From Raja brachyura (Eukaryota), in contig OY740806.1 of assembly GCA_963514005.1 (NCBI GenBank), forward strand, positions 19,778,001 to 19,842,000: a stretch of 64,000 nucleotides of DNA, given 5' to 3'. The translations under genes were made by a program, and so were the position numbers. This document shows, piece after piece, positions 18,904-57,348 of the stretch. The notes below the pieces were generated by a model. The model made no database searches, was not told the DNA's origin, and saw only the letters and a program-made list of their open reading frames with translations. How positions within the stretch are numbered: the stretch's first letter is position 1; each line of letters opens with the position of its first letter.

Positions 18904-21063
18904 GAAATGCTGGTATTTAAGCATGTTCCTTGGTGTGCTGGCAATGCTTAAAAGAGATTTAAGACAGAAAAGATGTGAAAAATGGCAATTGTTTTGTTAA
19001 TTAAATTAGTGAGTTTTTATCATGTATTACTATTATATGAATTTTTAAACAAAATAAACATATTTTCAACATTTTCCGTTAACAAAAACGTACATGTAAT
19101 GTCTAGCAAGAATAGCCCAAGGTCCATTTAAGTTTACCTTCCCCCCCCAATACAATGGCTACATGTTGATTTCTGAATTCTTCAGTTCTCCATGGAGCTT
19201 TGCACTGCCTTCCACAACGTCAGAACCAAGATAATTATGACTGCATGCGAGATGGAGGAATGTATTCCTTCAATAGCTTAATAATGCTAAATAATTGCAA
19301 CAGACTGAAAAGGAAAGACATTACGTTACACCAGCATTGTCTCAACCGGCAATGTCAACCATTCTTTTGCTTCCACAGATGCTGCCTGGCCAATTAAATT
19401 CCTCCAGCAGTTTGTTTATTGGTCCAGATGCCAGCATCCGCAGTCTCTCGTGTCTCCATTTGACATCACATGAGGATGGATGTGAGCATCAGTGGTGGGT
19501 GGGCAAATGGCTGCACAAAAATCTGAGGCCAATTATTTTTTATTGTGTGTAATGTGCCTGTAATGCAGACGCAAGTGAGATTTTCATTGGTCCAGTCCAT
19601 AAGTGGTTGAGATGATAAATAAACGCTCTTGACTTTAACTGTGGATCAGTTTCCATCACCCATTATGAGATATTGTCCCTTACGAATACGGTGTGGTGAT
19701 GGAATCGGCTTTAGAAGGTCCAGTGAGGCTGTAAGGATTCTTTAACTCATTGAATCCGTTCTTGGTCTAGATCAGTTGTGATTATGCCAATGATATATAA
19801 AGTTATGGGATTATCACAACATGGTGGGCAGGTAACACACCCAGCATCTGATTTATTTTCCAGACTGCCACAGAGCGAGTTTGTGATTTATTCTGCTCAT
19901 TGTCATATCAGGAACCTGAGATTAATTTTATTTACCATTTACATTGCAGCAATGTCTTTGGACAGAGTGTGCTTTCATTAATAAAGATGGTCAACTGTAA
20001 AATAAATTGACCAAAACAGCATTTTTGACTATATCTTATACAGATGGCAATAGTAATTTAACTAAATTCTAAAAAGCTTTTAGAAATATGAACTTGAAGC
20101 AGTATTTTGTTGATACTCGGTATGTCGTTAACTTTGTTTGATAACAGAGAGCACACACTAAGTTATTGACGTTTATAGTTCTACTAACATTATAGATGCA
20201 TAATTCCCCTGAACTTACTTCAAAATGAAGACCCTCTGAATTAAAATCTACATACACTGCGGCATTAACATCGTGGTTATATGTATCTTGTTGCTTTTTT
20301 TGTGTGACTGTTGGCAAATCAAATTCCTTGTATGCTTACTTACTTGGCTAATAAATTAATAACAATTGCAATTATTTATTTACAGAAAGAGTGCTTAACC
20401 ACCAGGAAAGTAGGTCAACATTATGCCATCGAGCGTCTAAAACTTGTATCATGCAAGTGACCAGGATACAGACAGGAAATAAGAAGAGTTGAAGTGCCAT
20501 TTGCTAAAGGTCAATGAGTAAGAGCTACTTTCCGATATAAGTGCAAACAGCACCTTCTATTGTATATTTAATCTGCTACTTGCTTGTCCAAGTCCTGTGT
20601 TTATATATCCTCCATAGTAAGACTGTAAAAAGTATAATGTTATTTCAGGACTCTCCGATGTGCTGCACACCTTTGAAGTGGAGTCGTATTGTGATGCTGA
20701 AATTGTGGAAATCCAATTTGCATGGAGTGAGTAACAGGAAACATGTTGTTAAATGGTGAGTGCGCGGCAGGACTATGGAGTGACTTCTACTGCTCCCTTT
20801 CGAAACATTGTTCTGATGTAATTTACCTGAGAGGGCAGATTCCACAGAGTTGTGAATCTGGGGAATTTCATTTCGGAGTCACGTGAGTGACTTCGTGAAG
20901 AGCCCGCCGGCGCGCATGCTCGACATATCGTCGCATCGCGTTGCTGCGACGGCTGGCGGTGGAGCGCGCTCCTCGCCAGCCCTCCCTAAGGGAACCACTG
21001 AGGTAAGTATCCTACCTTAAGTTGGTGGTCCTTGTTGTGTTGCTTTGTTTTCGCAGCAAGGAC

Positions 21064-22734
21064 ATGGATGGGAGCTCCAAGGGCCGGAGAATGTCTGGAA
21101 GAGCTCGCCGGTCAGCAGTCCCGGAGCCATTGATATCGGCGGTGCCTGCAGCGCAGGCCGGGACTCGGGCGGGAATGTCGGTAAGCCCTGTGTTTAGAGG
21201 TCCGGATCCGCCAGCACACCACAGTTCGGAGGAGTTCGACGAGGAGGAGTGTGGTGTGCCGCCAGAGCAGGAGGACCCTGCCATGGCAGTCAGGTCGTCA
21301 GCAGGCTTGCTGGCGACCTCGAGCAGAAGGGTGCGTACAGCTGCACGGCCCTTTTCACCCAGCCCTCCGAGCAGGGGAAGGGCAGGAGCCCGGAAGTCTA
21401 ACCCTGTAGGGGCTAAGGCTTTGCCTGCCGCCGAGGAGCGGTCAGGTTCCAGGGCGGGACCCGGGGCGGCTGTGAGGTCCAGTCGACGCCCCCCAACTCT
21501 CGACGCTGGGACGGGTCGGTTGGGTCGGGTCTCGTCACGGTCGCCGAGCCCCCCATGGATGGGTGGGCGAGACCATGCGTCGGCGAGGTCCACGATGTGG
21601 GCAGCCGGCAAGCCCGCGCGGGCATCAGGTATCCAGGCTGCGGCTGGTGCCGACACTACGCCGCAAGTGCCCTTAGTGGCAGCGGCTTCAGCTCCCGCTA
21701 AACGGAGGCGGTTGAACACGCCCGCGCGGGAATCGCGCAGTTTCGCTTCGGCGGCTGTTAGCGACGACTACCGGCACCGGGTGGGCCTCGATGAGGTGCG
21801 GGCCGATGATAGGGGCCCCGGCCAATTTTCAGAGCCGGAGGACTCCGACCACCTGAGTGTTCAGGGTGAAGGGCGTGTTGACCGTATGGAGTGGCTGCTG
21901 GAGCTCCTGCTTCACGGTCAACAGCAGCAAGCGTCCAGCAGCGACAGGCACAGGGCTGTTTCACCAACTTCCACCATCAGCCTGGAGCAGCAGGATGAGG
22001 AGGTTTTGGTCGATCCCATCCCACCTCCGTCCGATTTACCAGCGGAGGGCCTTCTCGATGTGGCCACTAAGTTCGCGGCCCCACACTCGTCTGGGCTTCC
22101 CCTGAACTAGAAATTGGCAGCCACGGTGGACTTCCTCAACAACCATCAGCTCCAGGAAGAAGTTCTCATTCAGGCCATGAGCCGTCACAAGGCTCCATCC
22201 AACTGCAACTCCCTCAACGTGCCTGTGGTCAATACGCCGATATGGGGCAACATCAGTGCGGCTATCCGTCAACAGGAGCTGAAAATTCAGCGGATCCTGA
22301 AGCTCCTCACGGCCGGTATTACCGCCTTTGTGCGGTTGGTTGATGGGGATGAATTAAATTTGGACCAGGAGGATGCTCTGGCTCTATTGTGTGCAACTCA
22401 ACATGAGATCAATGGATTCCGCACAAGCAGCATCCGCCCGGCGCTCAACCCTAAGTTTGCAGGGTTGTGCAAACCACCGCCGCCGCCCCGTCAGCTCTTT
22501 GGCGAAGATCTCTCTAAGAGGGTCAAAGAGCTTGACGAACAAGCCAAAACGGTGGGACTCATGCGCTCTCACAGTGCCCCCACGCCGTCGGGCTCGAAAG
22601 CTCCGCTTGTTCGGCCACGAGGGTCTGCCAGCACCTCTACAAGGACCTACCCTCCAGCTCCACCCCGTTACCAACAGCCCCAGCACCAGGGGGCTTTTTT
22701 AGGCAAGGTCGGCAGAAACCCTGGTGGAAGATGA
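21064..22734 (+). pseudogene. DIRS ORF1 (gag-like) with an internal stop at 22108-22110
   Basis: Two in-frame ORF pieces; LNPKFAGLC...LFGEDLSKRVKEL. Confidence 0.8.
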
Positions 22735-24674
22735 GGACGCCGCGCCCTCGAGCCAACCCAGCACCTGCACGTCCACCCACACGTGTCAAGGACCGCCGGT
22801 AACCACGGAGGTGAGGCGGTCTGGTTCTCTCTTTTCTCTTTGTCTAACCTCACATGTTGGTGGGCGCCTTCGGTTCTTTTTGGGTGCATGGGGTGATATT
22901 ACTGGTGATGAGTATGTGTTACGAAATGTTCAGGGTTATAGCATTGAGTTTCTTAATGGGGACATTCCTCCATCCCAGCACAGGCCTGGTCGAACATTTA
23001 AATTGTCTGCTGCAGAACAGGCAGCAGGCTATAAGGAAATTTTGAGGCTAGAACAGAAGGGAGTGATAGAGAAAACGGTTCATGAGCCCGTTGAATTTGT
23101 TTCCAATATATTCACTCGACCCAAGAAGGATGGAGGCTGTCGAGTCATCATTGACCTGACTAGTTTAAATACTTTTGTAACATATACTCATTTCAAATTG
23201 GACACTTTTGAAACAGCCAAATCTGTATCCATTCAAAAATACTATAGGAGGTTTCTGAAATTTATCTGGATGGGTCAACTCTGGCAATATAGGGCTTTGC
23301 CAAATGGGCTTACCACAGCCCCTCGATTATTCACTAAATTGGTGAAGCCAATTATGGCTTATTTACGACAACGACATCATATAGTAATGGCCTATTTAGA
23401 TGATATCTTAATTGTGGGCCACACCCTGGAATTGGCTCAACAGGGTGTTGCAGCTGCTGTCAATTTATTTCAGCAGCTGGGGTTCATTGTCCATCCAGCC
23501 AAATCAAAGTTCTGCCCCTCCCAGGTAATTCATTATCTGGGGTTTACGGTGGACTCTATTCGCATGAGGGTCACCATACCAACTAATATGGTTGAGGAGG
23601 TCACCCAGGTGTGTCAAGGTTTAATCAGCGCTGGTATACCATCGATTCGCCATACAGCTACAGTAATTGGCAAACTTGTAGCATTGTTTCCGGCAGCCCG
23701 ATATGGGCCTTTGCATTATCAGAATTTGCAAAGGGCCAAGATCGCTGCGTTAAGACAGCACGCTGGTCATTATGATCGACCTATGCAGCTGCCGCCTGAA
23801 GCGAGGGATGAGTTACGATGGTGGGTGCGCCACATTAGTAACTCATTTAAGTCTATTATTGAGGCTAATCCGGTGGTATACTTGCAAACTGATGCGAGCT
23901 CTTATGGCTGGGGAGCTACGGATCACTACTCTAGTTGCGGGGGCAGATGGGATACCCTTGAGGCTACTATGTTGTTGTCACAAGGGATCAACTATTTGGA
24001 GCTCCTTGCAGCATTCGACGGACTTCGTGCTTATTGTTCCAAGGTTTTTGGGGCACATGTCCGTCTCCAAATAGACAACACCACAGCGGTGGCATATTTA
24101 AACCATATGGGCGGTACCAGGTCAGTTTCGTGTGATAAATTGGCTAACTCAATTTGGCTCTGGTGTGTTCAAAGAGATTTGGATTTCAGCTACCTATTTG
24201 CCAGGTGACCTTAATACTGTGGCGGACACCAGGTCACGCAAGTTTAATGACAATATTCAATGGATGTTGCATCCTGAAATTTTTGCCAAAGTCACAGCCA
24301 AATTTGGGAAACCGGATATTGACCTTTTTGCGTCACGGTTGAACCATCAGGTACCAACATACGTCTCGTGGGAACCAGATCCTGGGGCTATGGCGCTAGA
24401 TGCATTCTCGCTGGACTGAGGGAATTGGTTTTTCTATGGATTCCCCCCGTTTTGCCTCATCAGTCGGGTATTACGAAAGATTCAGATGGATGCAGCCAAG
24501 GGCATCCTTATTATACCCGACTGGCCTACACAGCCGTGGTATCCGGTGGTCTTTGACATGCTCAGTGAGCCTTGGGTCCTTTTGAAGGGTTGCCCAGAAT
24601 TGGTTACTCACCCTGTGTCAGGGGAGCCACATCCCTGCCATGGCTCTTTAAATTTGTTGGCTTGCAGGTTTTGA
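22724..24674 (+). pseudogene. DIRS RT-RNase H-MT ORF, disabled
   Basis: YLDD, TDAS, INYLEL, DNTTAV, DIDLFAS and FPPF present; frameshift ~24175, stop at 24417, motif A deleted. Confidence 0.9.
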
Positions 24675-25652
24675 ACAGGCCGTTAGCCCAATATGGCCTC
24701 TCAACTCGGACCATGGATACCATTGCGGCGTCGTGTCGAGAGTCAACAAGGCGAAGATACCGCTCACATATCAAGAAGTGGGAAGCCTACTGCAGCCGCT
24801 CTCGCATCACGTACGATGCCGTGACTATAACCGACGTCCTGGAATTCCTCGCGGGGTTGCACCAATGATGAACACTTAAGTTACAGTGCCATCAACAGCG
24901 CCAGGAGCGCGCTGTCATTCTACCTCAAGATTGAGGTGGGATCCAACAGGCTAGAGTCCAGACTCATGCGGGGTATATTCAATATGAATCCGCCTACACC
25001 ACGCTACAATATCACCTGGGATGTCAGGGACGTTTTAACCCTGCTCAGGACGTGGTCCCCCATAGAAGGGCTCCAGCTGGACAAACTCACCATGAAGCTG
25101 GTGATGTTACTAGCGCTGACTTCAGCACAGAGGGTACCGACACTGCATAAACTACGTGTCGACAGAATGATGTCTACCCCTACAGAAGTAGTCTTCTTCG
25201 TTGATGAGCTACTAAAGCAGCATAGACCTGGGTGCACAGGGCTGCAGCTGAAGTTCCCGGCATACCCCGCAGATGCTAGGCTGTGTTTAGCCTCACATAT
25301 CCGTCACTATGTCAAGGTGACGGCATGCATCAGAGGAATGGAGAGATACCTGCTTGTCCCTCATAAGAGACCTCATCATCGAGTGACAGTCCAGACGATA
25401 TCCAGGTGGCTCCGGGTCGTCTTGGGTAAGTTAGGTATCGACACTAATGTGTTCAAGTCTCATTCCACCAGGGCTGCATCGACGTCGGCGGCGAGGGTCA
25501 TGGAGGTGCCCATGGACCATATTCTCGCCACAGCAGGATGGGCTAATGAAGCTGTGTTTCAGCGATTTTATAACAAGCCTGTTGCTGCTCCTCTACAGTT
25601 CGCGGAAGCCGTGCTGAATGCAGGTCAAGAACGTGGAGGTGTCCCCGCATGA
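24660..25652 (+). pseudogene. DIRS tyrosine recombinase with stops near 24866
   Basis: LTSAQR, SHSTRAASTS, AGW...FQRFY motifs. Confidence 0.88.
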
Positions 25653-26954
25653 GGGGTTTTTGATTTATTGTTAATAAATATGCTCTTGTTTTGCAGTATG
25701 AACTATTTGAGCAAGTTTGTTCCTCCCATCCATCCCTGCTAGTGGTGTGTCAGCATGGACGTGGTCCAGGGCGTGTAATCACAGAAGCTTTTGAAGTCTT
25801 CACGAAGTCACTCACGTGACTCCAAAATGAAATAGTAAGATTGAACGAGAACTTACCAGTTCGAAGGTTGATCGTTATTTCATGAGGAGTCGCGGTGAGG
25901 GATTTCGTGCCCTCCACGCCCAACCCTCAATCACCTTCACCTGGTAATTTGAGTCTCTTTCATCTTACTATGCCAAGTCATTTCTGTTACTGGTTTCTGT
26001 GATTCCACACCGCTACTTTGAAGAATGTCGAGCATGCGCACCGGCGGGCTCTTCACGAAATCCCTCACCGCGACTCCTCATGAAATAACGATCAACCTTC
26101 GAACTGGTAAGTTCTCGTTCAATCTTACTATTCTCTGCCACAGAAGGCAGTGGAGGCCAATTCACTGGATGTTTTCAAGAGAGAGTTAGATCTTGCTCCA
26201 GAGTTAGATATAGTTAGAGTTAGAAAGCAGGAATGGGGATACTGATTTTGGATGATCAACCATGATCATATTGAATGACGGTGTTGGGTCGAATGGCCAA
26301 CTCCTGCACCTATTTTCTATGTTTCTATGTTGCCTCATTTATCAAACAGAGTATCTGGTTTTAACTGGTTTTCTAGAAGCAAGCAAAACTTGATTATTTA
26401 TCTTATTAAAACACTGATTTTAGTTTAAAGTCATACCGTGTGCACCAAACCCTTAAAATCAGGCATGATATCCAGTATATAGTCCATAACATAACAGTCC
26501 AAAGCTTTGATAGCATGAAAAGTCTTCCTCCATGTCCGATCAACTCATGAATGTGTTGGAACAACAATGTTGAAATGTAAAAATCCTTCGAGAGAATAAC
26601 AGGATTTTTAGCAATAAACTTCACTGTTATGTTTGATTTAATTCCAGATCATTAACAGAGATTTCAAATCCCAGCTCAAGCTTTGGCCAGTCTAAAATTT
26701 AAAGACACATGCCATCATTAATGACACACAAAGCAAGCCAAGTTCATGTACAATAATGTCAGCTGAGGAATTTAATTTCAAGTAATTGAATGAATTTAAT
26801 AGTAAACAAAACTAACCATGTTACTTAAGGGATCTGTAGGGGGTGCTGCCTCAAAAAGGCAACCAGCATCTTCAAAGACCCACACCACCCTGGCCACACT
26901 CTCATTTCATTCTTACCAGGTATAGGTCTCTGAAGACCATGAACACCAGGCTAC

Positions 26955-26990
26955 AGTCTGAAGAAGGGTCTCGGGCCGAAACGTCGCCTA
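26955..26990 (+). ncRNA. Minimal hammerhead ribozyme motif, copy 1
   Basis: CTGAAGA-A-GGGTCTCGGGCC-GAAAC-GTC; imperfect stem II. Confidence 0.55.
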
Positions 26991-27157
26991 TCTCCTTCGC
27001 TCCTTAGATGCTGCTGCACCCGCTGAGTTTCTCCAGCTTTTTGTGTAACCCTCGATTCTCCAGCATCTGCAGTTCCTTCTTTAACACTTTGTCTACTCCA
27101 CAGCGATATCTCCTCAAGGTATGCCTACTTTGAAGAAGTTCTCCTCCTCCCTACGGC

Positions 27158-27193
27158 AGTCTGAAGAAGGGTCTCAGCCCGAAACGTCGCCTA
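27158..27193 (+). ncRNA. Minimal hammerhead ribozyme motif, copy 2
   Basis: CTGAAGA-A-GGGT(CTCA)GCCC-GAAAC-GTC with palindromic ACGT stem III. Confidence 0.62.
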
Positions 27194-28581
27194 TCTCCTT
27201 CGCTCCTGAGATGCTGCTGCACCCGCTGAGTTTCTCCAGCTTTTTGTGTAACCCCTAGGCTTAAGAATAGCTTCACCCTACAAACATCAGGCTGTTAAAT
27301 ATGGCACAACACTAACTAAACTATAAACATAGAAACATAGAAACATAGAAAATAGGTGCAGGAGTAGGCCATTCGGCCCTTCGAGCCTGCACCGCCATTC
27401 AATGTGATCATGGCTGATCATCCAACTCAGTAAATAGTCAATAAACTATTCATTGTCTTTGGTTGCACTAAGAACTTTGGTCTCTTTTGCACTAGTACTG
27501 TGGTTAATTTTCTTTATTTGATTTTGTTTATTATATGTTATGAGTATTGGGTTTATAGCCCTGTAATGCTGTTGCAAATGAGAATAGTACATATGACAAT
27601 TTTAAAACTCTTGACTCTCGACTACTGAAACTACTGGATTTTTGCAAAGATCATCTGATGCTAATGTCCTTCAGAGAAGGAACATTCCTCTCCGTGCCTG
27701 ATCTGGCCTTAATGTGACCGCAGACCCACGAATATGGGTGATGCTTACCTGCTTTCTCACCTCGGCTCAGGGCAATTAGGAATGGGTAATATATATGGGC
27801 ATTGCCGATGATATCCAGATCCTACAAGTGAAATAAGACTGAACCTCTTTCTATCAATTGGAGGGAATGGATGGCAAAAGGTTTCTGTTCAACGTGATAT
27901 TAGAGCTCTATGGACAGCAAAGTTGTTTTGAGCATTATCACTGTTGGCAAAACACAATTGCCAATTTGTGTTCACCAAGGTCCCAATAGGGCAGAAAGTT
28001 TGATTCTCTATTTTAGTATTTTTCTAGCTTATTCCAATGAAATAAATATTGGCTATTAGTATAGTCCTAATAAAAACAAGCTGGACTAAAGTAAGATCAA
28101 CAATGAATATATTATTCATTTTAATTTGTCAATGCACTTGGAGGGTGTTCTCAGTTGACAGCTGTTCAGTCACTTAGCCGTCCTATCATTCTGTAACAAT
28201 ACGGTTACTGGTTTATACCAATGTTTAACCGTATTATTTTCATGCTTACATGCTATTAACACATTTGTAATATTCTAGGAACATACTTTCAGTTTAATCT
28301 ATTGTGGGAGAGGCTTGTACTGGAGAGATGTCTGTGGCTGCTGAAGGGTGTGAATGGAAGTAATGAGAAAGCTTTTTCCAAGCCGGCACCTATAAAGTAA
28401 ACACCGCTGTGTAGCATGATTTTGTATAAACATTAACAGAAATGCAGGAAGCACACGGCTCCATGGACAACGTCTGTGGAAAAAGCAACCAGTTAAAGTA
28501 AAACATCAGAAAAAAAAGCACAAAGTGCTTGAGTAACTCAGCAGGTCAGACTGCATCTCTGGAGAACATGGATAGGTGTTG

Positions 28582-30522
28582 ACAATAGTGCTGGAGAAAC
28601 TCAGCGGGTGCAGCAGCATCTATGGAAGCGGATGCAATAGATGAGGTTGGAGGAGATGCAGGTGAACCTCTGTCGCACCTGGAATGACAGCTTGGGTCTT
28701 TGAATGGAGTGGAGGGCGGAGGTAAAGCGACAAGTGTAGCATCTCTTGCGGTTGCAAGGGAAAGTGCCCGGGGCGGGGGTGGTGCGGGAGGGAAGGGAAG
28801 AATTGACAAGGGAGTTATGGAGGGAGTGGTCTTTGCAGAAACCAGACGGGGGGAGAAGGGAAGATGTGGCGAGTGGAGGGGTCACGTTGGGGGGTGGCGA
28901 AAATGATGGAGGACTATTTGTTGTATGTGATGGCTAGTGGGGTGAAAGGTGAGGACTAGGGGGACTCTGCCCTTGTTACGAGCAAGGGGATGGGGAGAGA
29001 GAGCAGTGTTACGGGGTATGGAAGTGACCCTGGTGCGAGCCTCATCTATAGTTTGGGAGTGGAACCCCTGTTCCCTAAAGAATGAGGACATTTCCAATGC
29101 CCTGGTGTGGAACACCTCATCCTGGGAGCAGATGCTGCGTAGACGGGGGAATTGGGAGTAGGGGATGGTCCTTACAGGAAGCAGGGTGGGAAGAAGAGTA
29201 GTCTAGATAGCCATGGGAGTCAGTGGGTTTATAGTGCATGTTGGTTAGAAGTCTATCACCTGCGATGGAGATAGTGAGGTCAGGAAATTGTAGGGAAATG
29301 TCGGAAATGGTCCAGGTGTATTTGAGTGCCGGATGGAAGTTAGTGGTGAAGCGGATGAAGTCAGTCAGTTGTGTGTGGGTGCAGGAGATAGTACCAAAGC
29401 AATTGTCGATGTAGTGGAGGTAGAGGTCTGGGATGGGGCCCTTGTTCGCCTCGAACAAGGATTGTTCGATGTACCCGACAAAGAGGCAGGCATAGCTGGG
29501 GCCCATGCGCGTGCCCATAGCTACGCCTTGTATTTGGAGGAAATGGGAGGAGTCAAACGAGAAGTTATTGAGGGTAAGGACCAATTCCGCTAGGCGGAGG
29601 AGACTATCAGTGGACGGGTTGATTCTCCAGTCAAGGAAGAACCGGAGGGCTTTGAGACCATCCTGGTGGGGGATGGAGGTGTAGAGTGACTGGACGTCCA
29701 TGGTGAAGATGAGGGGATGGGGGCCTAGAGAATGGAATGCCCAGAGATGACTGAGAGTGTCTGAGGTGTCTTGAACATAGGTAGGGATGGATTTAACCAG
29801 GGGGGATAGGATGGAGTCAAGGTATGTGGAAATGTGTTCGGTAGGGCACGAACAGGCAGAGACAATGGGTCTACCAGGTCAGTTACGTTTGTGGATTTTG
29901 GGGAGAAGGTAAAATCGAGCTGTGCGGGGCTGGGGAACGATGAGCTTGGAGGCTCGGGGGGCTGGGAGCCGGAGTGGATGAAGTCGGGGATGGTGCTAGA
30001 GATAGTGGCCTGGTGCTCGTCAGTGGGGTCTTGGTCCAGGGGTAAGTAGGAGGAGGTGTCCGAGAGTTGACGCGTGGCCTCAGCTTTGTAGAGATCGACG
30101 CGCCAGACTACCACGGCACCTCCCTTGTCGGCGGGTTTGATAATCCAGTCTGGGTTTTTGTGGAGTGGGTCGATGGCTGTACGTTCAGGGGGGGAGAGAT
30201 TGGACTGCGACAGGGGAGTGGAGACGTTGAGGCAGTTGATGTCCCGAGGGCAGTTTTAAATAAAAAGTTCTAAAGCCGGAATGCCATGAAGGGGGGTCCA
30301 CGAGGAGGGGGTTCGTTAGAGATGGGAAAAGGGATCATCAGTGGGGGGGCGAGGACTCCTTCCCATGGAAGAACGCTGCGGGGTGGAGGCGACGGTAGAA
30401 GTGCTCCAAGTCGTGGTGGGCGCAGAACTCATGGAGGTGGGGATGGAGGGGGACAAAGGTAAGACCTCTACTGGGGACTGACCGTTCGGTGTCGGAGAGG
30501 TCAGGGGTGATGGTGAATACAT
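28582..30522 (-). mobile_element. Penelope-like retroelement (RT plus GIY-YIG), frameshifted
   Basis: MDVQSLYTSIP, QIQGVAMGTRMGPSYA, YIDNCF and PGTFPCNRKRCYTC...NLIYCI; 13-bp TSD TGGATAGGTGTTG (28569-28581, 30523-30535). Confidence 0.92.
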
Positions 30523-31309
30523 TGGATAGGTGTTGTTTCAGGAAGAAAAGTTCCAACGCAATAGTCACTTATCCATGTCCTCCAGTGATGCTGCCTGACC
30601 CAATGAGTTGCTCCAGCACTTTTTGTCTTTCTTTTTGTATAAACCAGCATCTGCATCTCCTCGTATCTCTACGCAAAACAACATGTGCTGGAGAAACTCG
30701 ACGGCTCAGGCAGCACCTTGAGAGGGAATGGACAGGCAGCTTTTCAGGGCAACTTCAAGTCGAGAGAGTTTATTGTCATGTGTCCCAGATTGGACAATGA
30801 AATTCATCCTCCTTGCTTCAGAAATGGTTCCCAATTTATAAATGTAAAGCCCACCCTCCTGCACCATTACTCCATCCATATCTTCAGCTGCTTTGTCCCC
30901 TTATGTCTGAGCTCATCAACACTTTACATAGTGAGCCATCCGCAGATTACCGCCTGTGAGCTTCTGCAATCAAACCTCGTTTCTGCCTTCAAAAATCTGA
31001 TTGCAGGATCTCTTTCCCTGCCATTTGTGAAGACCACACTTTTGATTGCTCAACCTCCTCCAAATGCCTGCCTCGGACAGTTGAATCCCTGATTACTAGC
31101 AGTCTCTCACAGTGTCTGACTAAGAAGCTTGACCACACGGGATGGCATGATTCTGCTTCTGGACACCCTTCTCTGCAGAACCATCATCTCACCAACATAC
31201 AAAAGGGTAACATTTATTTGGTGAGGACAAGGAGAACTCTATCCATGTTTGAGGGAGGACACAGCATGGGAACAACAGTGTCGTAAATGTGGCCACTGTG
31301 AATGAGAGC

Positions 31310-36059: not shown

Positions 36060-39000
36060 CATAGTAATTGTATTTCTATGTATTTTTTCCAGTTTTTATA
36101 AAGATAGAAATTAATAGAGAAAGAGTAAACAAAAAAGAGGAGGAAAAGTTGGGAAAGAATGGAGTGTTCTATAGATTATGCATCGTTGGAGATATATCCG
36201 CGTATTATGAAATGTAATTCTTCATCTATTCTTTGATTCCAGTTTCAGTCGGGTTCTCGTGCCGAACCAGTTTGCTCCTTCAAATATTCAATAAATGGGG
36301 ACCATATTATTTTAAATAGTTTTTGTTTGTCCATTAAGACGAATCTTAATCTTTCCAAATATAGGGTCTCCGACATTTCTGTAGTCCACATTTTTAATTG
36401 TGGGGGTTATAGGACCTTTCCAAAATTTTAATATTAATTTTTTCCCAATTATTAAACTATAATCAATAAAGGTTCTTTAATTTGAAGTAATGAATTGATT
36501 TTGTTCTATTATTCCTAATATTATTAATTTTGAATCGCGGACCAGTTTGGTATTGATGACTTCCGAGATTATCTTAAACATTTCCATCCAAAAATTATTA
36601 ATTTTTATACAGCTTACGAATGTGTGCGTTAGGTTAGCCTCTAAGTGTTAACATTTATCACAAATAGGGGAAACACTTGGAAAAATTCTATTCAATTTGG
36701 TTTTTGAATAATGCAATCTATGTAATACTTTAAATTGTATTAAAGAATGTCTAGCATTTAACAAACAGTGATGTATATGTTGTAAACTTTCATCCCAAAT
36801 TTCTGGGCTTATTGTTTGTCCTAATTCATTTTCCCATGATTGCCTATATGAATCCGTCTTGGGTGCATCGTTATCTAATAGAATATTATAAATATAAGAT
36901 ATCAATTTTTCTGTGTTCGGATGTTTATTCAAACATTCATCAAAATGTTCTATCTTTCTAATTCTATAGTCATGTGCATTTGACTTAGCATAGTCTCTGA
37001 TTTGTAGATATCTAAAGTAATCCTTTGATTGAAGCCCATAGATTTGTTGTAATCCCTGAAATGAGAAAAATGAATTTTTCCTATAGAGATCACCCATCTT
37101 TGTAATTCCATGATTTTTCCATTGTAAAAAACCCTTATCCATCAATGAGGGTTTAAATGCAGCATTGTTTACAATAGGAAGAGATAGTGTTAAATAATCC
37201 AATTTTAATGTTTTCTTTATTTGTTTCCAAATGCGTATTCCATTGTCTATTATAGGGTTTTCTTTATAAGTTTTTTTGCTTAATTTAGTAATAGCAAATA
37301 GAATTGACCCAATTTCAAAAGGTAAACAATCTTCCTTTTCCATTTTTAACCAATCTGGTTGTTTGTCCAATTCTTCCAACCAAAAATTCATATTTTTAAT
37401 ATTGACTGCCCAGAAATAAAACATAAAATTCGGTAATGCTAAGCCTCCATTTATTTTTGATTTACATAAGTGTTTCTTTTTTATTCTGTGGTTCTTATAA
37501 TCCCAGATAAAATTGGTGACTGTAGAGTCAACCATTTTTTTAAATGTTTTGGGGAGATATATCGGGATTAATCGAAAGAGGTACAATAATTGCGGGAGAA
37601 AAATCATTTTTATCGCATTAATTCTACCCAACGTTGAAATAGGTAATGTTTTCCGATACAAAATATTCTTATATAATTTGTTCAGTAAAGGCGGAAAATT
37701 AGATTTAAATAAAGAAGTGTATCTGTTTGTTACATAAATTCCAAGATATTTAAGTTTTTCTTTTACTATTTTAAAAGGGAATTGTAAAATATGTGGGTTA
37801 TTTTCCATTATTGGCATGATTTTGCTTTTATTCCAATAATTCTGTATCCTGAAAACGAACCATATTGAGTTATTAAATTTAGTAAATTTGGGATACTAAC
37901 TTCAGGTTTAGTAATGTAAACTAATACATCATCTGCGTATAATGAGATTTTATTTTCAATATCTTTGGTTTTATACCCGTATATTTCAGGATTGTACCTC
38001 ACGCTTTCTGCTAATGGTTCTATTACAAGTGCAAATAATAATGGGGATAATGGACATTCTTGTCTACAACCTCTGGATAAATTAAATTTAGTTGATAATA
38101 TTTGATTTGTTGATATTCTAGCTGTTGGATTTGTATATAGAAGTTTTATCCATGTACTAAACTTCTCGCCCAGTTGAAAAATGTTCATAACCGAAAATAA
38201 ATAGGGCCATTCCACCTGGTCAAAAGCTTTCTCAGCATCTAACGAAATAATTGCTAGGTCTTTGATAATATTTCTTTTTGAGTATATAATATTGAATAAT
38301 CGTCTCGGGCTATATGAAGAATACCTTTTTGAATCCGGGTGTATTAATTTATTAATCACTATGCTTAATCTTTGTGCTAGGATTTTAGTTAATATTTTCT
38401 CATCAGCATTTAGAAGAGCTATAGCTCTATATGATCCTGGATCATCCAGATCCTTATCTATTTTTGGTATAATAGATTAATTTAGGTTCATAGATTCATT
38501 ACCAGTTTCTGGTAATTTCTGTTGGATATAGATATGTTTGTACAGTGTCTTTAAATGTGGAACAATCAGATCATAGAATGTTTTATAAAATTCCGAGCCA
38601 ATGCCATCTGGTCCCGGGATTTACCTTTTTTTAGTGATCTGATAGACTCTTCAATTTCTTTTACTGTTATTTCAGCATCTAATAATTCTCTCTTTCAAAT
38701 CTAACCCTTTAAGATTGCATTTTTGTAAAAATGCTTCTATTCCTGTCTGGTGATCTATAGTTTTAGCAGAATAAAGATTTTGATAGTATTGTAAAAATTT
38801 CTCGTTAATGTCCTTAGATTGTACTAATGGTTCTCCTTTGTCTGATTTAATCCTATGAATTGTTTTTTCCCCGTCCAGTTTCCGTAATTGACGAGAAAAT
38901 AATTTTTTAGGTTTATCTCTGAATTCAAATTGTAATTGTTTAGTATATTGATAAAATTTAACAACTTGGTCTGAATATATTTTATTTAATTTATATTTCA

Positions 39001-40828
39001 ATACTTCAATTTTATTATGTTTTATCATAGTTGGTGGAGCCGCGTTCTCTATGTCTAATTGTTTAATTTCCCTTTCCAGTGCCTGTTGTATCACCCGATT
39101 CTTTTTATTATAAAATGCTTGGGAAGAAATCACGACTCCCCGAGTAAATGCTTTAAATGTTTCCCATAGTAAGGAGGCAGATGTTTCAGGATTATCGTTT
39201 ATTTCAAAGAACATATTAATCTGTTTGGTAAGATATTTCTGAGATGCTTTCTCCGTTAACATTTGTGGGTTAAGACTCCATTGTACCTGTTTCTCCGTCC
39301 TTCCATTTATTTTAATCATAAATGTTAAAGGGGCATGATCCAAAATTATAATATTATGGTATTTTGAATTATATGTAAATGGAATTAGCTTAGAGTCCAC
39401 TAAAAAATAATAAATTCTTGAATAGGTTTTATGTACCGGTGAATAAAATGAATATTCTCGTCCAGTTGGATTTTCTATTCTCCAAACATCTTTGATATTA
39501 CTAGCATCTATATATGCGTTTAATAAATCACTGGAGTGGGATATTGTTTTCCGTTGTCTTGATGACCTATCTAAATAGAGATCTAATGTACAATTTAAGT
39601 TTCCTCCGATTATTAAATTGTGTTGGGATAATTCCGGAATTGTATTAAATATTTTCTTAAAAAACAAAGGGCTATCAAAATTTGGTCCATAAACATTAAT
39701 AAGTCAATTTTTGTGCATATAGTTCACCTCGTAGTATAATATATCTACCATCACTGTCCGTTATAGTTGACATATGTTTAAAAGGTATCCCTTCACGGAT
39801 TAGTATTGCAACACCTCTGGATTTATGTTTAAATGAAGAATGATACGCTTTATCAATCCATTTAGCTTTCAATCTATGTTCTGCATCCTTTTTTAGGTGG
39901 GTTTCTTGGAGGAAAATTACATCTGTTTTAAGTGCTTTTAAATGTGCTAATACTTTACCTCTCTTAATTGGTTCGTTAATACCCTTAACATTCCAGCTAC
40001 AAAATGTTATTCCTTCACCCTCGGTCTTCATATTTAAGTCTTGCATCTTTTGTTTAGGGAGGTCTATAAGAGAGCAGATGGTTCAGCTCGACAAGCCCCA
40101 CATTACACCCGAACCTCGAATAGATGAATTTTAAATCCCATTGATCTTTCTTACGTACATATCTCCTTTGATAAAGCTCATAACTCCATTCTAACTTAAA
40201 ATTATAATAAAGTATTATATTAAAAAAAGAATAGATTAAGAGGTTAGTAATGTGCAAAAAGAAAGAAAAAACTACATCTATAAATAGTGTAGTTAGTGAT
40301 AGCCATACTAGCATGGCTAACCATCTACCGACTTCCATAGTCGATGTAAAAAAACACATGACTAGCTCCATACTCTCTTTAAAATGACATTTTCATAGCG
40401 ATATTTTACCGGGGGGGGGGGGTGGTAAACATTATAGGTTCCAAAATATTCAAATTCCATTAGTCAAATATATATTTTAAAAAATTCTTTTTTTAAAATT
40501 CCCCCAAAAAAAGGAATGAAAGAGAAGAAAAGTGAAATCAAACTTTAAATCCAACCGTTTAGCTAATTCTAAATAATTCAATTGTAAGTAATTAGTGACC
40601 ATTAGTAATAATTATTAATAGTACCGCGCAGTAATGTTAATATTTATTAATTATTATGTTAATAATATAATAATAGCCATAGATGTAACACGTCCGTGGA
40701 AAAGGCCTTATTCAGCATCCATCTCCAGTTTCAATTGTCCTTAGGTATAACCGGGCCTTAGAACCATCCGACCTTACACAGTTACATTGTTCGTTGACAT
40801 CATTTATTTTGAAGATAATGTTCAGTCA

Positions 40829-50100: not shown

Positions 50101-50513
50101 TAATTGGGTAAAAAGCAAAGCTCAATACTCAGCCCGGATGTGCTTCTTTGAAACAAGGAACTGCAGACCCTGTTTAACAATAGATGCAGCGAGGTGGAGT
50201 AATTAACAGGTCAGGTAGCATCTCAGGAAAACATGGTCTGAAAAAGGGTCCCGATTGCAAATGTCCATGTTTTCCAGAGATGCTGCCTGACCCGCTGAGT
50301 TACTCCAGCACTCTGTGTGTACTGAAGTACCTCTTATTCATTTTGACTGAAACAAAATTTGTTTCTTCATCTGATTTCTAATTGGTTGTACTTTATATTT
50401 ATAATAACATATCTGTAAATGTCTTGGTGCAAATCGCACGGCGTTTAACATTATCAATTTAATAGTCATATAGTGCAGAAACTGGAGTCCCCATACTTTG
50501 GCAAATACTTTAC

Positions 50514-50861
50514 CATAAACCTGTATTTGTGTTCCTTGGCCCTTTTCATGAATTGGTGGGAACACATTTGGTACTTTCACCACACATGTGTAGTTGTAAG
50601 CAGAGTGCCCAGACGATACATTTTCAATCTTCAGTGATGCCGTACAGTGTTTGAAACCATCCCAGAGGGGGTGAGGAATGCAGAGCAAGTTGTTCATCCT
50701 GTAATTAACATCAGGCCCTCCTGGTGATGTCCGATACCAGTAAACGCGGAGACAGGCATTCACTGTTCCATTATAAATAAATGTACAGTTTAACATGGTG
50801 GACTCGCCTCTCCGCACACTGACCAGGCGTGGCTGGGCCAACTCTGTGATTAGCGGAACTC
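50514..50861 (-). CDS. VJ-type IgV exon (gene B)
   Basis: Open 348-nt phase 1-1 exon with canonical splice sites; same motifs as V1 and V2, GQGTQIQV. Confidence 0.9.
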
Positions 50862-51816
50862 CTGATGGAAAATAAATTAATTTGTTATTTTTACTTCCAT
50901 TAATATTCCAACATAAACTCACTTTAAACAACACTGAAATGGGGGACATAAACAGAATGCTAGAAGATCTCTGTGGGTAAAGCAGCAGTTTTGGAGGCAA
51001 AAGGTAAAATAATATGATGTTTCAAGTGAGACCTTGCAATAGGATTGAGGGGGGGAACAAAAGACAGCAAGTATATAACAGGATGGAGGAAGATGGGATG
51101 GGGCTAGTCAGAGATAGGAGATACAATGGTCAAATGGGTGGATGATGGGGAGATCAAACCAGATAGGGGAGGAGGTCTGAATTGAAGATTAAATTTCCAT
51201 TGTATCAATTATTTTTGTTAAATAATATTTGCCTTTTTCAGATTTAATTATAAATATAAATGTTATGTTGCTTTGTGATGCAATGTTCTGCCTGAATTTG
51301 TTTCATTTGCAGACGCCATCAGATGTATCCGAATGTTGCCATTATGACACTTGGCTGATAATTACTTCAAGTTACTGAAGTGACTGCTAAAAACATAAGT
51401 AATAGGAGCGGATTAAGGCCAGTCAGCCCATCACTGCCATTCAATCATGGTTGATCTATCTCTCCCCTTCAACCCCTTTCTCCTACCTTCTCCTTATAAT
51501 GCCTGACACACATTTTAATCAAGAATCTGTCAATCTCCTCATTAAAAATATGTACTTTTATTATAGCTTTTAATAAATGGCATAATTTTTTTTGAAAAAA
51601 TTTACATTACAACTTAAAATATCTAATCATTGTACTATCTTGCAGCAGGAGTTTAATCCTTCTCTAGTTCTGAATGTCCCTGGTGCTAATTAAACTCTCA
51701 GTCTATCCCCTGCTCCAAGAGAACTTTGCATGACTTTGCCAGAAAACATCACCTATTCCTTCTGTCCAGAGACGCTGCCTGTCCCGTTGAGTTACTCCAG
51801 CATTTTGTGTCTATCT

Positions 51817-54800
51817 TGTGACGCCACCCGGTGGTCAGGCCACTTACTATGTGAACCCTCGGCAGTCGAGGGTACGGTCACGTGACAGGGTAATGGGGGA
51901 AGGAGTTGTCACGACGTTTAGGGGTGTGCCCTAGTATAAGTATTCAGCCACGGGTCAACCTTCCCCCATTCATGTGTGTGTTGTTCTCTTTACTTCAGCA
52001 ATAATGATCTCTTTTTTTTTAAATATTTTTTTATTTGAAGTAACCAGTTTACAATGTATAACACACATTTAAAACTATCATCTTAATTCAATATTTCTAC
52101 AAATAGCACATCGATAATTAATATCGTCTGTTTTTTTGGAAATAAAGATAGAAAAAGATATATAATAAAGAGGAAAAGAAAAAAAAAGATAGAAATAGAA
52201 AACAATCTACAAATACAAATTAAAAAAATATATATATATTATATATATATATAAATCAAAAACAACTAAGTACATTATACATGAAATTATTTCAAACAAT
52301 AATATCAATGGGACATGCGCATTAATCCCATATGTAAATAAGTTATTCTCATCGGATTCCGTAGGGTGCCCGTCGAGCCGTGATGCCAAGAACAGCTACT
52401 TCTCTAGATACTGTATATATGGAGACCATATCAGTTCAAAAGAATTATACCTGTCCAATAGGACAAATCTAATTCTTTCCAAATATAACGTCTCCAGCAT
52501 CTCTGCTGTCCACATTTTAATTGTTGGGGATAATGTTCCCTTCCAAAATTTCAATATGATTTTTTTCCCTATTATCAAACAGTAATCAAAGAAATTTCTT
52601 TGATTTACTGTCAAAACCAAACTTGATTCCAGAATTCCAAATATTATTAATTTTGGGTCAGGGTCCAGTTTAACTTTAAGAACTTCAGAAATTACTTTAA
52701 AAATTTCTGTCCAGTAATAATTCAACTTAGGGCATGTTACAAAACTATGTGTTAAGTTTGCTTCTAGATTCTTACATTTATCACAAATAGAGGAGAGATT
52801 GGGAAAAATACTATTTAATTTGGTTTTCGAATAATGTAATCTATATAGTACTTTAAATTGTATCAATATATGTCTAGCATTTAAAGAACACCGATTTATT
52901 CTCTGTAAGCTTTCTTCCCAAATTTCTTTTGTTATAGGTAATCCAATTTCATTTTCCCATGCTTGGCGATATGTTTCAGTTATTGGGGTCTCTTTATCTA
53001 GAATAATATTATATATATGAGCTATTAACTTTTCCGTATTTGGATGTAAATTAAACAAACCATCTAATAAGCCTGGTTCTTTATTTTTATAATCTTGTGT
53101 ATTACATTTAATGTAATCTCTAATTTGTAAATATCGAAACAAATGTTGTGAAGGCAATCCAAAAATATCTTGCAACTCTTCAAATAATAAAAATTTTCCA
53201 TTTCTATAAAGGTGTCCTATCCTTTTAATTCCTAAATCCTCCCAGAGTCTAAACCCCGCATCTAATATTGAGGGTTTAAACAATGGGTTATTCCTAATTG
53301 GTAACCTGAAGGATAGATTATCCAGATGTAAAGCCTTAACTATCTGTTTCCATATACGCCTATTATTATAAATTATAGGGTTATCCCTATAAATCTTTTT
53401 TTGTACTTCCTTTGGGGCAAAAAGAATCGAGCCTATATTAAAAGGTAAACAGTCTTCCTTTTCCATCTTTAACCACATTGGTTCATTATCCAGATTTATC
53501 CACCAAAAATTCATATTCTTAATCTGGACTGCCCGGAAGTAATATAAAAAACTTGGAAGTGCTAACCCTCCATTTATCTTAGACTTACATAAGTGTTTTT
53601 TACTTATTCTATGACTTTTATAGTCCCAAATAAAACTATTAACAATATTATCAATTTTCTTAAAAAAAAATTTTGGGAGAAAAAAAGGAATAGCCTGAAA
53701 CAGATATAACAATTGTGGTTAAAAAAATCATTTTTATAGCATTAATTCTACCAACCATAGATATAGGAAGTGTTTTCCAATATGAAATATTTTTTATAAG
53801 TTTATCTAATAATTGAGGATAATTAGATTTAATTAATAATTTATAGGATTTAGGTACATTGATTCCTAAATATTTAAATTTATCTGTGACTATTTTTAAT
53901 GGATATTGTTGCAATATATTTACATTTATGCCAGTTATAGGCATAATTTCACTTTTATTCCAGTTAATCCTATATCCTGAAAATATGCTAAATTCATTTA
54001 TAACATTAAATAACTTGGGAATACTGCATTCCGGTCTTGTAATATAAATCAAAACATCATCTGCATATAAAGATATTTTATTAATTGTTGTATCAGTATT
54101 ATAACCATATATTTCAGGTTCAGATCTAATTCTTTCAGCCAAAGGCTCTATGACCAAGGCAAATAATAAAGGGGATAACGGACATCCCTGTCTGCATCCC
54201 CTAAATAGTTTAAATTTAGGTGATAGTATTTGATTAGTTAAAATTCTTGCAATAGGATTAGAGTATAATATTCTTACCCATTTACAGAATCCATCCCCCA
54301 ATTGAAACTTTTCCATTATATTAAATAAATATGACCATTCCACCTGATCGAATGCTTTTTCTGCATCCAACGATATAACTGCTAATTCTGTGTCTCTTTT
54401 TCTTTTCGAATATATGATATTAAACAGGCGCCTAAGATTGTGTGATGAATAACGTTTTGGAATAAAACCTGTTTGATCGTGATGTATTATTTTAGAAATC
54501 ACTAAACTTAGCCTCCGAGATAGTACTTTAGTTAATATTTTTTGGTCAGTATTTAAAAGAGCAATCGCTCTATATGATCCAGGATCTTCCAGATCCTTGT
54601 CTAACTTAGGGATGAGTGTAATTGTAGATTGATTTAAGGATTCTGGTAATTTTCCTAGTTCATATGCATATCTATACACTATCTGTAATCTTGGTGAGAT
54701 TAGATCATTAAATTTTTTATAAAATTCTGCACTCAGGCCATCAGGGCCCGCGGTTTTTCCATTTTTTAACGAACCAATTGATTCTTCAATATCTCTTACT

Positions 54801-57348
54801 GATATTTCAGCATTTAACAATTGCCTACTTTCCAGATCTAGCCTATTAATATGACATTTGTCTAGAAATATTTCCATTTCATCTGTTTGCCCTGTTGATT
54901 TTGATGAATAAAGATTTTGATAATATTGTAAAAATGTGTCATTAATATCCTTTGGTATAGTCAGTATGTTTCCCTGCATAGATCTAATACTATTTATAGT
55001 TTTTTCATCATCTAATTTTCTGAGTTGTCGTGCTAATAATTTTTGTGGCTTATCTCCAAATTCAAAATGTACTTGTTTGGTTTGTTGAAAAAGTTTAATA
55101 ACTTGGTCAGAATATATTTTATTTAATCTATATTTTAATATTGCAATTTTATTAACTAACTCTTTAGAAGGATGTTTTATATTTTCACTATCTAATCGTT
55201 TTATCTCCTTTTCTAACTTTTGCTCCGTCTTTCGATTTTCTTTATTAAAATATGCTTGTGCTGATATTATTGCACCACGCATAAATGCTTTAAATGTATC
55301 CCATAATAATAATGGGGAAATCTCAGGTTTATCATTAGTTTCGAAAAATAATTTAATCTGTTCCTCCACATAATTACAACAGCCTTTGTCCTTCAATATT
55401 TGTGGGTTAAATCTCCAAGTTTTATTAACTATATCTTTTAATTTTATCTTGAATGTTAGCGGGGCATGATCTGAGATAATAATATTGTGGTATTTTGCAT
55501 CATACGTGAAGGGAAGTAATTTTGAATCGACTAAAAAATAATCTATCCTCGAATAGGTTCCAAATACCGGTGAGAAAATGAATATTCACGTCCAGTTGGA
55601 TTATCCAATCTCCAAATATCCTTAACATTCGATGTATTAATAAAAGAATTTATATATTTACTTGGCTTAGAAAGAGCTTTCCTTTTCGTGGAAGATCTAT
55701 CTAAATAATTATCTAAAGTACAATTTAAATCACCCCCAATTATTAAATTATATTGAGTGGATATAGGGATATTATTAAATATTTTCTTGAAAAATAATGG
55801 GTTATCGAAATTGGGTGCATAAGTATTCATAAAAATTACTTTTTTTGACTGTAATTCCCCTGTAATTATTAAATATCTACCCTCCTTATCCTCTATTATA
55901 GAACTAGGTTTAAAAGGTATGCCTTTACGAATAATTATTGCAACTCCTCTAGATTTATGTATAAATGATGAGTGATACACCTTTGAAATCCACTTAGCTG
56001 TTAATCTATATTGAGCATCTTTTTTAAGATGTGTCTCCTGAAGAAACGTAACATCTGATTTCAATCTATTCAACTGAGCTAACACCTTTCCCCTTTTAAC
56101 TGGTTCATTAATTCCCTTAACATTCCAACTACAGAAGGTGATTCCATCACCCCCAATCCTTACATTCATATCTTGCATTTTATTATTAGGGTGGCTTTTT
56201 TTGGGGTAGCCTTCTTGACTCCTCCAGCCCGACATAACAACCCAGCTTTAGTCCGATGAAAATTACAAATTCCATTAAACCATGTCCATTTAACCTGGTT
56301 ATATAATATAAGTCGTAACCATAATCATATAATATATAATATAAAATCGAAAAATAGTAAAAAATGTAAATATAAAAAAAGTATAGGGTGATAAAAGGGT
56401 GTAGAGAAAAAAAAGAAACTACACTTTTATAGCGTGTAGTGTGCACAAGTGGGAGCCACACTAGTATGGCTATTAATCTAAGGACTTCCGTTTTCTTAGA
56501 AAAAAGATGTTGGTTATTCCAGCTCTTATCTAGAATGCTGTATATGTTGGGGCGGGGTACTAACTTTATGTTCTTAGTAACTATTTCTATTATTCATATA
56601 ACTGATTTCTAGTTAATGATCTCTTTGATTCACTCGCTTATTCGCCCGACATATTGGTGACCCGACGATCCTAAACGGTCATTTTGGATTTCAACGATGT
56701 TTGCAGCCAACGATCAACCTCAACAGCCCGAGGTTGCTGACAATCCAGAACGCTGTCTCCCTGAAGCTGCCCGTGTTCTGGATATCGCAGCCCCAGGTGT
56801 GGTTCCAACAGGCCGGGGCCCAGTTCCACGTTTGACGCATCACGGCCGATGACACCCGGTACTACTATGTGGTCGGCGCGTTGGATCAGGGGACGGCCGG
56901 TCGCCTGGTCCCTTACCATGCTCGCCAATGGATCAGGACAAATACGAGGGCCTTAAAGCGCTGCTCTTGCGGATCTTTGGGCTCAACGGCCGGGACCGCG
57001 CGGCGCAGCTCATGCACATGGGCAGCCTCAGTGATAGCAAACTGTCGGAGCTGATGAGATGCTCACCCTCATGGGCAGTCATCGGCCCTGCCTGCTCTTC
57101 GAACACGCCTTCTTGGAGCAGATGCCGGACGACAGTGAGGATTTGTGCTCGCCTTCGGCGGTCGGGGGCAGAGTCACGTGACTGGTTAATGGCGGGAAGG
57201 AGTTGTCATGAGGTTTAGGGATGTGCCCTAGTATAAGTATTCAGCCACGGGTCAGCCTTCCCCCATTCGCGTGTGTGGTGTTCTCTTCAGTTCAGCAATA
57301 AAGATCTATTTGATTCACCACGTATGGCTTGCTTATTCGCCCGCCATA
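51817..57348 (+). mobile_element. Internally deleted gypsy LTR element whose 5' LTR is split by an L1
   Basis: LTR TGTGACG...CATA; ATCT TSD (51813-51816, 57349-57352); PBS TGGTGACCCGACG (tRNA-Trp-like) at 56655; gag remnant VSLKLPVFW...QVWF; empty site in copy A at ~16780. Confidence 0.88.
52015..56613 (-). mobile_element. L1-clade LINE lacking ORF1 (ORF2 with frameshifts)
   Basis: APE, RT (DAEKAFD, RQGCPLSPLLF, YADD) and CCHC motifs; poly-A; 13-bp TSD TAATGATCTCTTT (52002-52014, 56614-56626). Confidence 0.95.

Follow-up and report, generated by a model that had tools for sequence, protein, structure and literature searches.

The window, a stretch of 64,000 nt of Raja brachyura DNA, holds an insert on the forward strand at 26954 to about 27256. 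The insert contains two 98-nt copies of a pLTR piece (26954-27051 and 27157-27254) that are 97% identical and repeat with a period of 203 nt. It is flanked on the left by AGGCT at 26948-26952, which lies inside an older repeat and extends to 7 bp if one mismatch is allowed, and on the right by AGGCT at 27257-27261. In the coordinates of its parent element (parent 153 = window 26954), the insert reads 153-354, one G, 153-250. Copy 1 starts at the 5'-end hot spot of the family, the inferred transcription start. It is followed by the 37-nt Penelope 'tail' (27052-27088, parent 251-287; tails are treated in the accessible part of PMC11167929), which lies between the two 3'-end clusters of the family, then by the 5' leader of the parent (27089-27120) and the first 12 codons of the parent ORF (MPTLKKFSSSLR, 27121-27156). 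The junction at 27155-27157 leads from parent 354 through one G back to parent 153; this G is either untemplated, as a copy of a cap, or a parental variant present in some copies. Copy 2 (parent 153-250) ends at the commonest 3' end of the family, the presumed start of reverse transcription. Unit 1 differs from the parent at 4/203 positions and copy 2 at 3/98, and both copies have a G at parent 173.

Both copies carry a minimal hammerhead motif on the forward strand. Motif 1 (26956-26987) has a 2-bp stem I, a core at 26958-26964, a G-G mismatch in stem II and a palindromic ACGT, with a predicted cut after 26985. Motif 2 (27159-27190) has an intact stem II with a U-G pair and a predicted cut after 27188. 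An initial annotation, made from the letters of the window, had described an insert of about 300 bp between AGGCT repeats, composed of 1.5 copies of a 203-nt unit, and the repeat coordinates and target-site comparison confirmed this. The motif parts that it listed for each copy (CTGAAGA, an extra A, a 4-bp stem II, GAAAC and GTC) and both predicted cuts were also found as described. Both of its hammerhead motifs are confirmed, with the correction that stem II of copy 1 is mismatched and stem I has no more than 2 bp in either copy. The insert is not wholly non-coding, as it had supposed: the parent start codon, at 27121, and 12 codons lie inside.

The insert interrupts an older host repeat. Eight fetched places hold uninterrupted copies of this repeat, and their flanks, read by eye, are in register with a single AGGCT-like site; the gap of 4-6 projected by script is unreliable because the left alignment stops about 45 nt from the site. 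The AGGCT pair is therefore a real target-site duplication. It is short for the family, as 39/50 junction loci show 9-18 bp.

Other features were seen in the window. Downstream of the insert, 27323-27440 is a 3' fragment of a repeat that we take to be LINE-like, with ATAGAAAC units. One contig of run X19 has the 3' end of the insert and skips this fragment, which may be younger or polymorphic. The region 21007-26132 is likely a DIRS-type element, in which an RT frame (22703-24208) and a tyrosine-recombinase frame (24831-25652) precede a perfect inverted repeat with arms of 79 nt (25831-25909 and 26054-26132). An immunoglobulin V-set domain exon at 50338-51021 on the minus strand probably belongs to a host gene. 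Two AT-rich LINE-like copies with RT frames, one of them also with an endonuclease frame, lie at 36648-40082 and 52396-56593 (minus strand). Related hammerhead motifs are also present in other, older pLTR fragments of Penelope type, at 1951, 17864, 42696, 43253, 47054 and 58523.

Judged by its sequence, the insert repeats 1.5-fold the front end of an autonomous Penelope-like retrotransposon and is probably no element in its own right. A full-length Penelope-like element elsewhere in the genome, probably of Neptune/Nematis type, has a 5' end with which it is colinear. The 105-nt spacer between the two copies gave 1278 first-look candidates in the 2.7-Gb genome, and exact anchors inside it matched 619 and 770 times. 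Two loci are full-length tandems, with periods of 3930 nt (L032) and 4043 nt (L031). L031 contains a 774-aa frame with matches to RVT_1 (E 4e-4) and to GIY-YIG (E 9e-4) that do not reach Pfam's cut-offs. The parent translation contains DKG, YIDD, CxxC-YIG and two His, motifs that we name partly from general knowledge. A Cys-x4-Cys-x2-Cys stretch upstream of the GIY-YIG domain forms a putative Cys-rich linker, which fits the description of Neptune/Nematis in the available text of PMC8557442. The label 'Poseidon-type' for the parent was dropped. Direct and inverted pLTR pieces occur at many loci, and the family shows what is expected of Penelope-like (EN+) elements: RT with a C-terminal GIY-YIG, tandem or inverted pLTRs, an optional tail of 30-40 bp and a target-site duplication.

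A 38-bp pLTR piece (parent 199-236, 97% match) lies at 28590-28627 on the minus strand, at the end of a neighbouring element, so that the repeat is shared with the border of this neighbour as the initial annotation had noted. The neighbour itself (28616-30521, minus strand) is a separate insertion, an older, broken Penelope-like copy covering the RT region. It is of the same kind, but at 87.6% identity to the full-length parent and with broken frames it is an older relative, and it was rejected as the source.

To describe the family, we used a 44-mer of the pLTR piece, which has 39,020 exact matches in the genome; 70 regions taken in genome order from the match list were parsed into 106 segments. 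The 5' ends of 58/106 segments fell at parent 150-160, the 5' edge of the hammerhead. The 3' ends formed two clusters, 66/106 at 244-253 and 36/106 at 277-290, that bracket the 37-nt tail. Copies that also bear the leader are roughly 2% of the family by exact-match counts. For these, 90 regions were analysed, representing 93 of the first 100 listed places (two in L031 and the last five were left out), and removal of three duplicates gave 87 loci. Exit from the parent occurred at 345-369, near the start of the ORF, in 33 loci, at 375-389 in 16 and at 395-425 in 17; four of the 87 ran past parent 1000. Direct re-entries fell within the 16 positions 148-163 in 41/75 cases. The junction class of the window, with exit at 345-369 and rejoining at 148-163, was seen in 25/87 loci, 15 of which also start at 148-163. 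The shape found in the window is the commonest outcome among leader-bearing copies.

Junctions were diverse at the level of exact sequence. A gapped pattern located 135 short junctions in the genome, and among the 100 of these that were listed a hand count gave about 86 distinct strings, none present more than three times. The exact junction of the window occurred at four loci that differ in architecture, flanks and subfamily variants, and at five loci if a CpG change is allowed; the private leader variant of the window was absent from every other fetched locus. Several odd junctions recurred at two loci each (L057/L275, L095/L097, L096/L098, L060/L276 and L130/L155), and junction-bearing RNAs may be copied again now and then. 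The pair L280/L281, by its common flanks, is a segmental duplicate. One 311-nt unit, whose junction recurs, was considered as a propagating lineage and rejected, as its four matches lie at just two loci. Many loci, among them L051, L052, L053, L208 and L235, contain head-to-head inverted pLTR pieces that both end at parent 153-157 and often overlap as a short palindrome. Arrays of 32-nt and 56-nt units derived from the ORF-start segment alone were seen at G000:C1:108358366-108358590 and L064, which suggests repeated short resets at the same landing zone.

An extra G was frequent at the point of re-entry. By hand count among the junctions listed, G preceded re-entry in 24/24 cases at parent 153 (five of them possibly templated by the upstream arm), 11/15 at 154 and 6/7 at 155. 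Scripted counts at 30 loci gave 10/10, 3/6 and 1/1 at the same positions, and segments starting at parent 159 had a G in 17/20. The pooled excess was significant (51/85 compared with 36/100 elsewhere, p 0.001); in the family-wide set alone it was not (15/34 compared with 8/34, p 0.12). For the insert in the window the origin of the G at 27156 is ambiguous: a G stands at this position in some parent copies, and copy 1 is preceded by an A. The inferred start site at parent 153-159 resembles what we take to be an initiator consensus. Untemplated G at the 5' ends of L1 and SVA insertions has been ascribed to the cap (PMC3287187, accessible part), and the available portions of PMC2377424 and PMC8557442 describe an internal promoter of Penelope with its start in the pLTR. 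We infer that the template was a capped linear RNA rather than a circle, which would lack both a cap and a stop at 153. Parent 153-155 is a CAG preceded by a pyrimidine tract, but a splice acceptor there was rejected as the chief explanation of the 5' cluster, as most junctions keep the CAG.

Variants within duplications indicated how the two copies are related. At a G/A subfamily site whose minor form is found in 14/78 copies family-wide, 46/46 direct duplications were concordant, compared with about 30% discordance under random pairing. Such concordance is compatible with a return jump within one RNA molecule and with a single active source locus. In three arrays (L101, L093 and L301) the junction letters vary within the array; one covalent circle therefore cannot be the source of these arrays, and repeated jumps are needed. 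Six others (L088, L111, L307, L277, L122 and L155) have identical internal junctions, which fit jumps, a circle or later tandem amplification. Stalling of second-round copying at the annealed first cDNA was rejected on a trend judged by eye and too weak (8:7 compared with 4:9).

Taken together, the insert probably arose in one insertion, in which the reverse transcriptase ran up to the capped 5' end of a linear RNA and then jumped back. An internal promoter would start a capped RNA at parent 153-159. The enzyme would nick the target and begin internal copying at about 250, as was demonstrated in vitro with the anole element (PMC11167929, available text). After 98 nt it would arrive at the 5' end of the RNA and often copy the cap as a G; stopping there would yield the tens of thousands of solo pieces of about 100 nt. 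In a small share of events it would re-engage at about 354, probably on the same molecule, and copy to the 5' end a second time. The two hammerheads would then be passengers of the duplication, which would require neither cleavage nor a circle. Of 24 sequencing runs, all in the form of assembled contigs, four were compared with the window and four with the parent; they were uninformative about transcript starts, ends, strand or circles, and two presumed RNA runs were marked as probable DNA.

A jump between two RNAs, in which the enzyme moves after 98 nt to the free 3' end of another transcript, short or degraded, ending near 354, is an unlikely account of the insert. End-to-end template jumping is known for R2-type enzymes. 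It is touched on in passing in the accessible part of PMC12039810. The spread of exits over 345-369, 375-389, 395-425 and beyond, with A/T-rich untemplated letters, agrees with such a jump, but the concordance of all 46 duplications at the subfamily variant and the G at parent 173 in both window copies speak against it, except that both are also compatible with one active source locus.

We regard as improbable the proposal of the initial annotation that the insert is a non-LTR retrozyme. In that model a tandem locus is transcribed, the dimer hammerheads cleave, the 203-nt monomer circularises, and a Penelope enzyme copies the circle repeatedly. Two complete core motifs one unit apart with a palindromic ACGT agree with it, as do the loci with the exact or CpG-changed junction and the sister arrays L277, L122 and L155, which combine identical junctions with complete motifs; retrozymes are moreover described as pLTR derivatives in the available text of bioRxiv 10.64898/2026.07.22.740005. 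However, the junctions are heterogeneous and G-marked, copies 1 and 2 begin at the same base, where a circle offers no stop, and the junction-sharing loci differ in subfamily variants and lack the private leader variant. The circular monomer did not fold better than shuffled sequences, and in the same preprint, as far as its accessible part goes, 8/9 Xenopus dimers did not cleave. The motifs are Penelope-type minimal hammerhead motifs in an insertion made by a Penelope enzyme, as had been proposed. A distinct, non-autonomous, circle-based element is not what the comparison indicated: every base of the unit corresponds to ordinary pLTR, tail, leader or ORF start of a full Penelope-like element, the junction is not common to a clonal family, and the junction class is marked as expected for capped linear RNA. 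Occurrence of the unit only as ordinary pLTR of full Penelope copies, which the initial annotation had named as counting against its own proposal, is largely what was found.

Internal deletion of a full pLTR-ORF-pLTR copy at the DNA level, or later tandem duplication, is very improbable: full-length tandems exist and some junctions have short microhomologies, but such an event would not put the second breakpoint and the 5' end of the insert at one base, add a G or untemplated letters, gather 41/75 re-entries in 16 positions or leave the entire insert inside one target-site duplication.

The hammerhead motif was assessed for structure. The minimal type I features are present, namely the conserved core, an extra base after A9, helix II and a palindromic helix III. 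Stem II is perfect in 198/297 motif hits, the parent form, and is mismatched in window copy 1. Stem I is paired at positions 1-2 in 130/130 motifs and at position 3 in 1%, short of a helix I of 4-5 bp; a 2-bp stem I suits a motif at the extreme start of an RNA. An Rfam scan of 25000-31000, the covariance-model check suggested with the initial annotation, gave no hammerhead model at E values up to 5. The linear 301-nt RNA folded no better than shuffles (z 0.19). For the circular 203-mer the fold energy was -33.0 kcal/mol compared with -35.2 +/- 3.6 for shuffles (z +0.62), with 54% of bases paired and the hammerhead helices at a pairing probability of 0.001 or less.

Indirect signs of cleavage were seen at the level of the family. 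Among loci re-entering downstream of the core, 9/23 did so exactly at parent 185 (p 1e-7 against 25 positions), and G preceded only 3/9 of these, compared with 41/46 (p 0.001). Genome-wide, 184 5' ends lay at 185, compared with 55 and 112 at two control positions, although these counts are crude and include array units and mutated intact copies (2/12 inspected). They imply about 1% of copies or less. Two samples taken in order of position gave a weak excess of 5' ends at the cut (1/15 and 3/38, pooled p 0.03). At least two junctions were present at 4/23 loci re-entering downstream of the core and at 1/99 cap-class loci (p 0.004), with one of the four starting at 180 and not 185. These results suggest that the minimal hammerhead may cut in vivo at a low rate in this family; a capped start at 186 would give the same 5' ends as cleavage. 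Three arrays (L301, at G000:C1:74835260-74835573; L307, at C1:117724509-117724731; and C2:55272482-55272637) hold 3-5 units, each 61-63 nt long and running from precisely the predicted cut to the first initiation site; a single target-site duplication encloses each of L301 and L307. Units starting at 185 lack the catalytic core and are therefore not retrozymes. At L043:6376, other families in related organisms stay alike as far as the predicted cut and no further, so the motif appears to be better kept than its neighbouring sequence.

The locus itself is ordinary. It is a Penelope stub that was doubled, most likely by a single template jump; well over a hundred stubs like it exist, and no new biology is required to explain it. 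Traces at the level of the family (transcription start, jump and cleavage) matter more than the single locus, and the family assigns exact coordinates to the proposed start site, to both initiation sites, to the zone where jumps land and to the predicted cut. For most short tandems, the junction statistics speak against a circle model. We tentatively propose, while holding it rather less likely than its converse, that the family is a genomic record of in vivo Penelope biochemistry, in which a telomerase-related RT resets on the same linear RNA and builds repeats with the cap or the hammerhead cut as their boundary. RNA ending in a cap would give mostly 1.5-mers, and RNA cut by the ribozyme longer arrays without the catalytic core. 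If so, template jumping of this sort would mark the origin of non-LTR retrozymes, and 5' ends located at the cut would attest to cleavage by a minimal Penelope hammerhead in living cells. The formation of Penelope partial tandems and hammerhead cutting in vivo are described as open questions in the accessible parts of PMC2377424, PMC4209133 and PMC11167929. If confirmed, the proposal would connect the way in which Penelope tandems form with the addition of repeats by telomerase-like enzymes, and it would explain the origin of retrozyme-like units.

Partial tandems, tails and pLTR hammerheads are already known for Penelope-like elements (available portions of PMC8557442, PMC3846280 and PMC6765202). 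In the openly accessible main texts that were searched, neither cap-marked jumps nor 5' ends at a cleavage site are described for Penelope elements, and nothing relevant on shark or skate appeared. The insert and its parent resemble Neptune/Nematis-type EN+ elements as the accessible parts of PMC8557442 and PMC3846280 present them: alike are the RT and C-terminal GIY-YIG frame, the putative Cys-rich linker, the tandem and inverted pLTR pieces, the optional tail, a pLTR reaching the first codons and a short target-site duplication. Such elements form 5'-truncated partial tandems with a pLTR and a tail of 30-40 bp. In contrast to what is described there, both segments of the insert terminate at one shared base, taken to be the transcription start, and the upstream one begins just 35 nt into the ORF, which makes the insert a partial tandem without coding capacity.

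The anole Poseidon element PAc, in the available text of PMC11167929, similarly has two internal RT start sites bracketing the tail and a hammerhead near the ORF start. It belongs to another clade. In the family studied here, genomic 5' ends concentrate at the inferred start site and, to a weak degree, at the cleavage site; for the anole element no RNA reads were found at the cleavage site, and the text does not describe jumps back and states that the anole ribozyme needed protein. The minimal Penelope pLTR hammerheads of PMC4209133 (accessible part) share the minimal-motif features, but helix I is here 2 bp rather than 4-5 bp, as in the D. virilis variant, with a helix II of 4 bp.

Metazoan non-LTR retrozymes (available portions of PMC7229834 and bioRxiv 10.64898/2026.07.22.740005) resemble the insert in their period of 150-450 bp, a type I hammerhead per unit, pLTR-derived sequence and a duplication of more than 4 bp. 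With 1.5 units, two type I motifs, one of them damaged, and a period inside 150-450 bp, the insert might pass the operational filter of the 2026 preprint, in whose accessible part 1/9 dimers cleaved. Retrozymes, however, require a propagated unit and circular RNA, as far as the available part of PMC7229834 states. The insert has 1.5 units only, with no fixed unit or clonal junction, and it has neither a canonical helix I nor tertiary loops. Instead of a defined multi-copy unit, we found the exact junction at four loci and about 86 strings among the 100 junctions listed; the insert is not non-coding, and it has no stable, highly paired circular fold. Telomerase and DRT2, as presented in the accessible part of PMC12039810, offer a likeness in process, tandem DNA made by repeated copying of one RNA segment without a circle, as we infer here; compared with those systems, the process in this family would be imprecise, mostly limited to one round and apparently a by-product of transposition.
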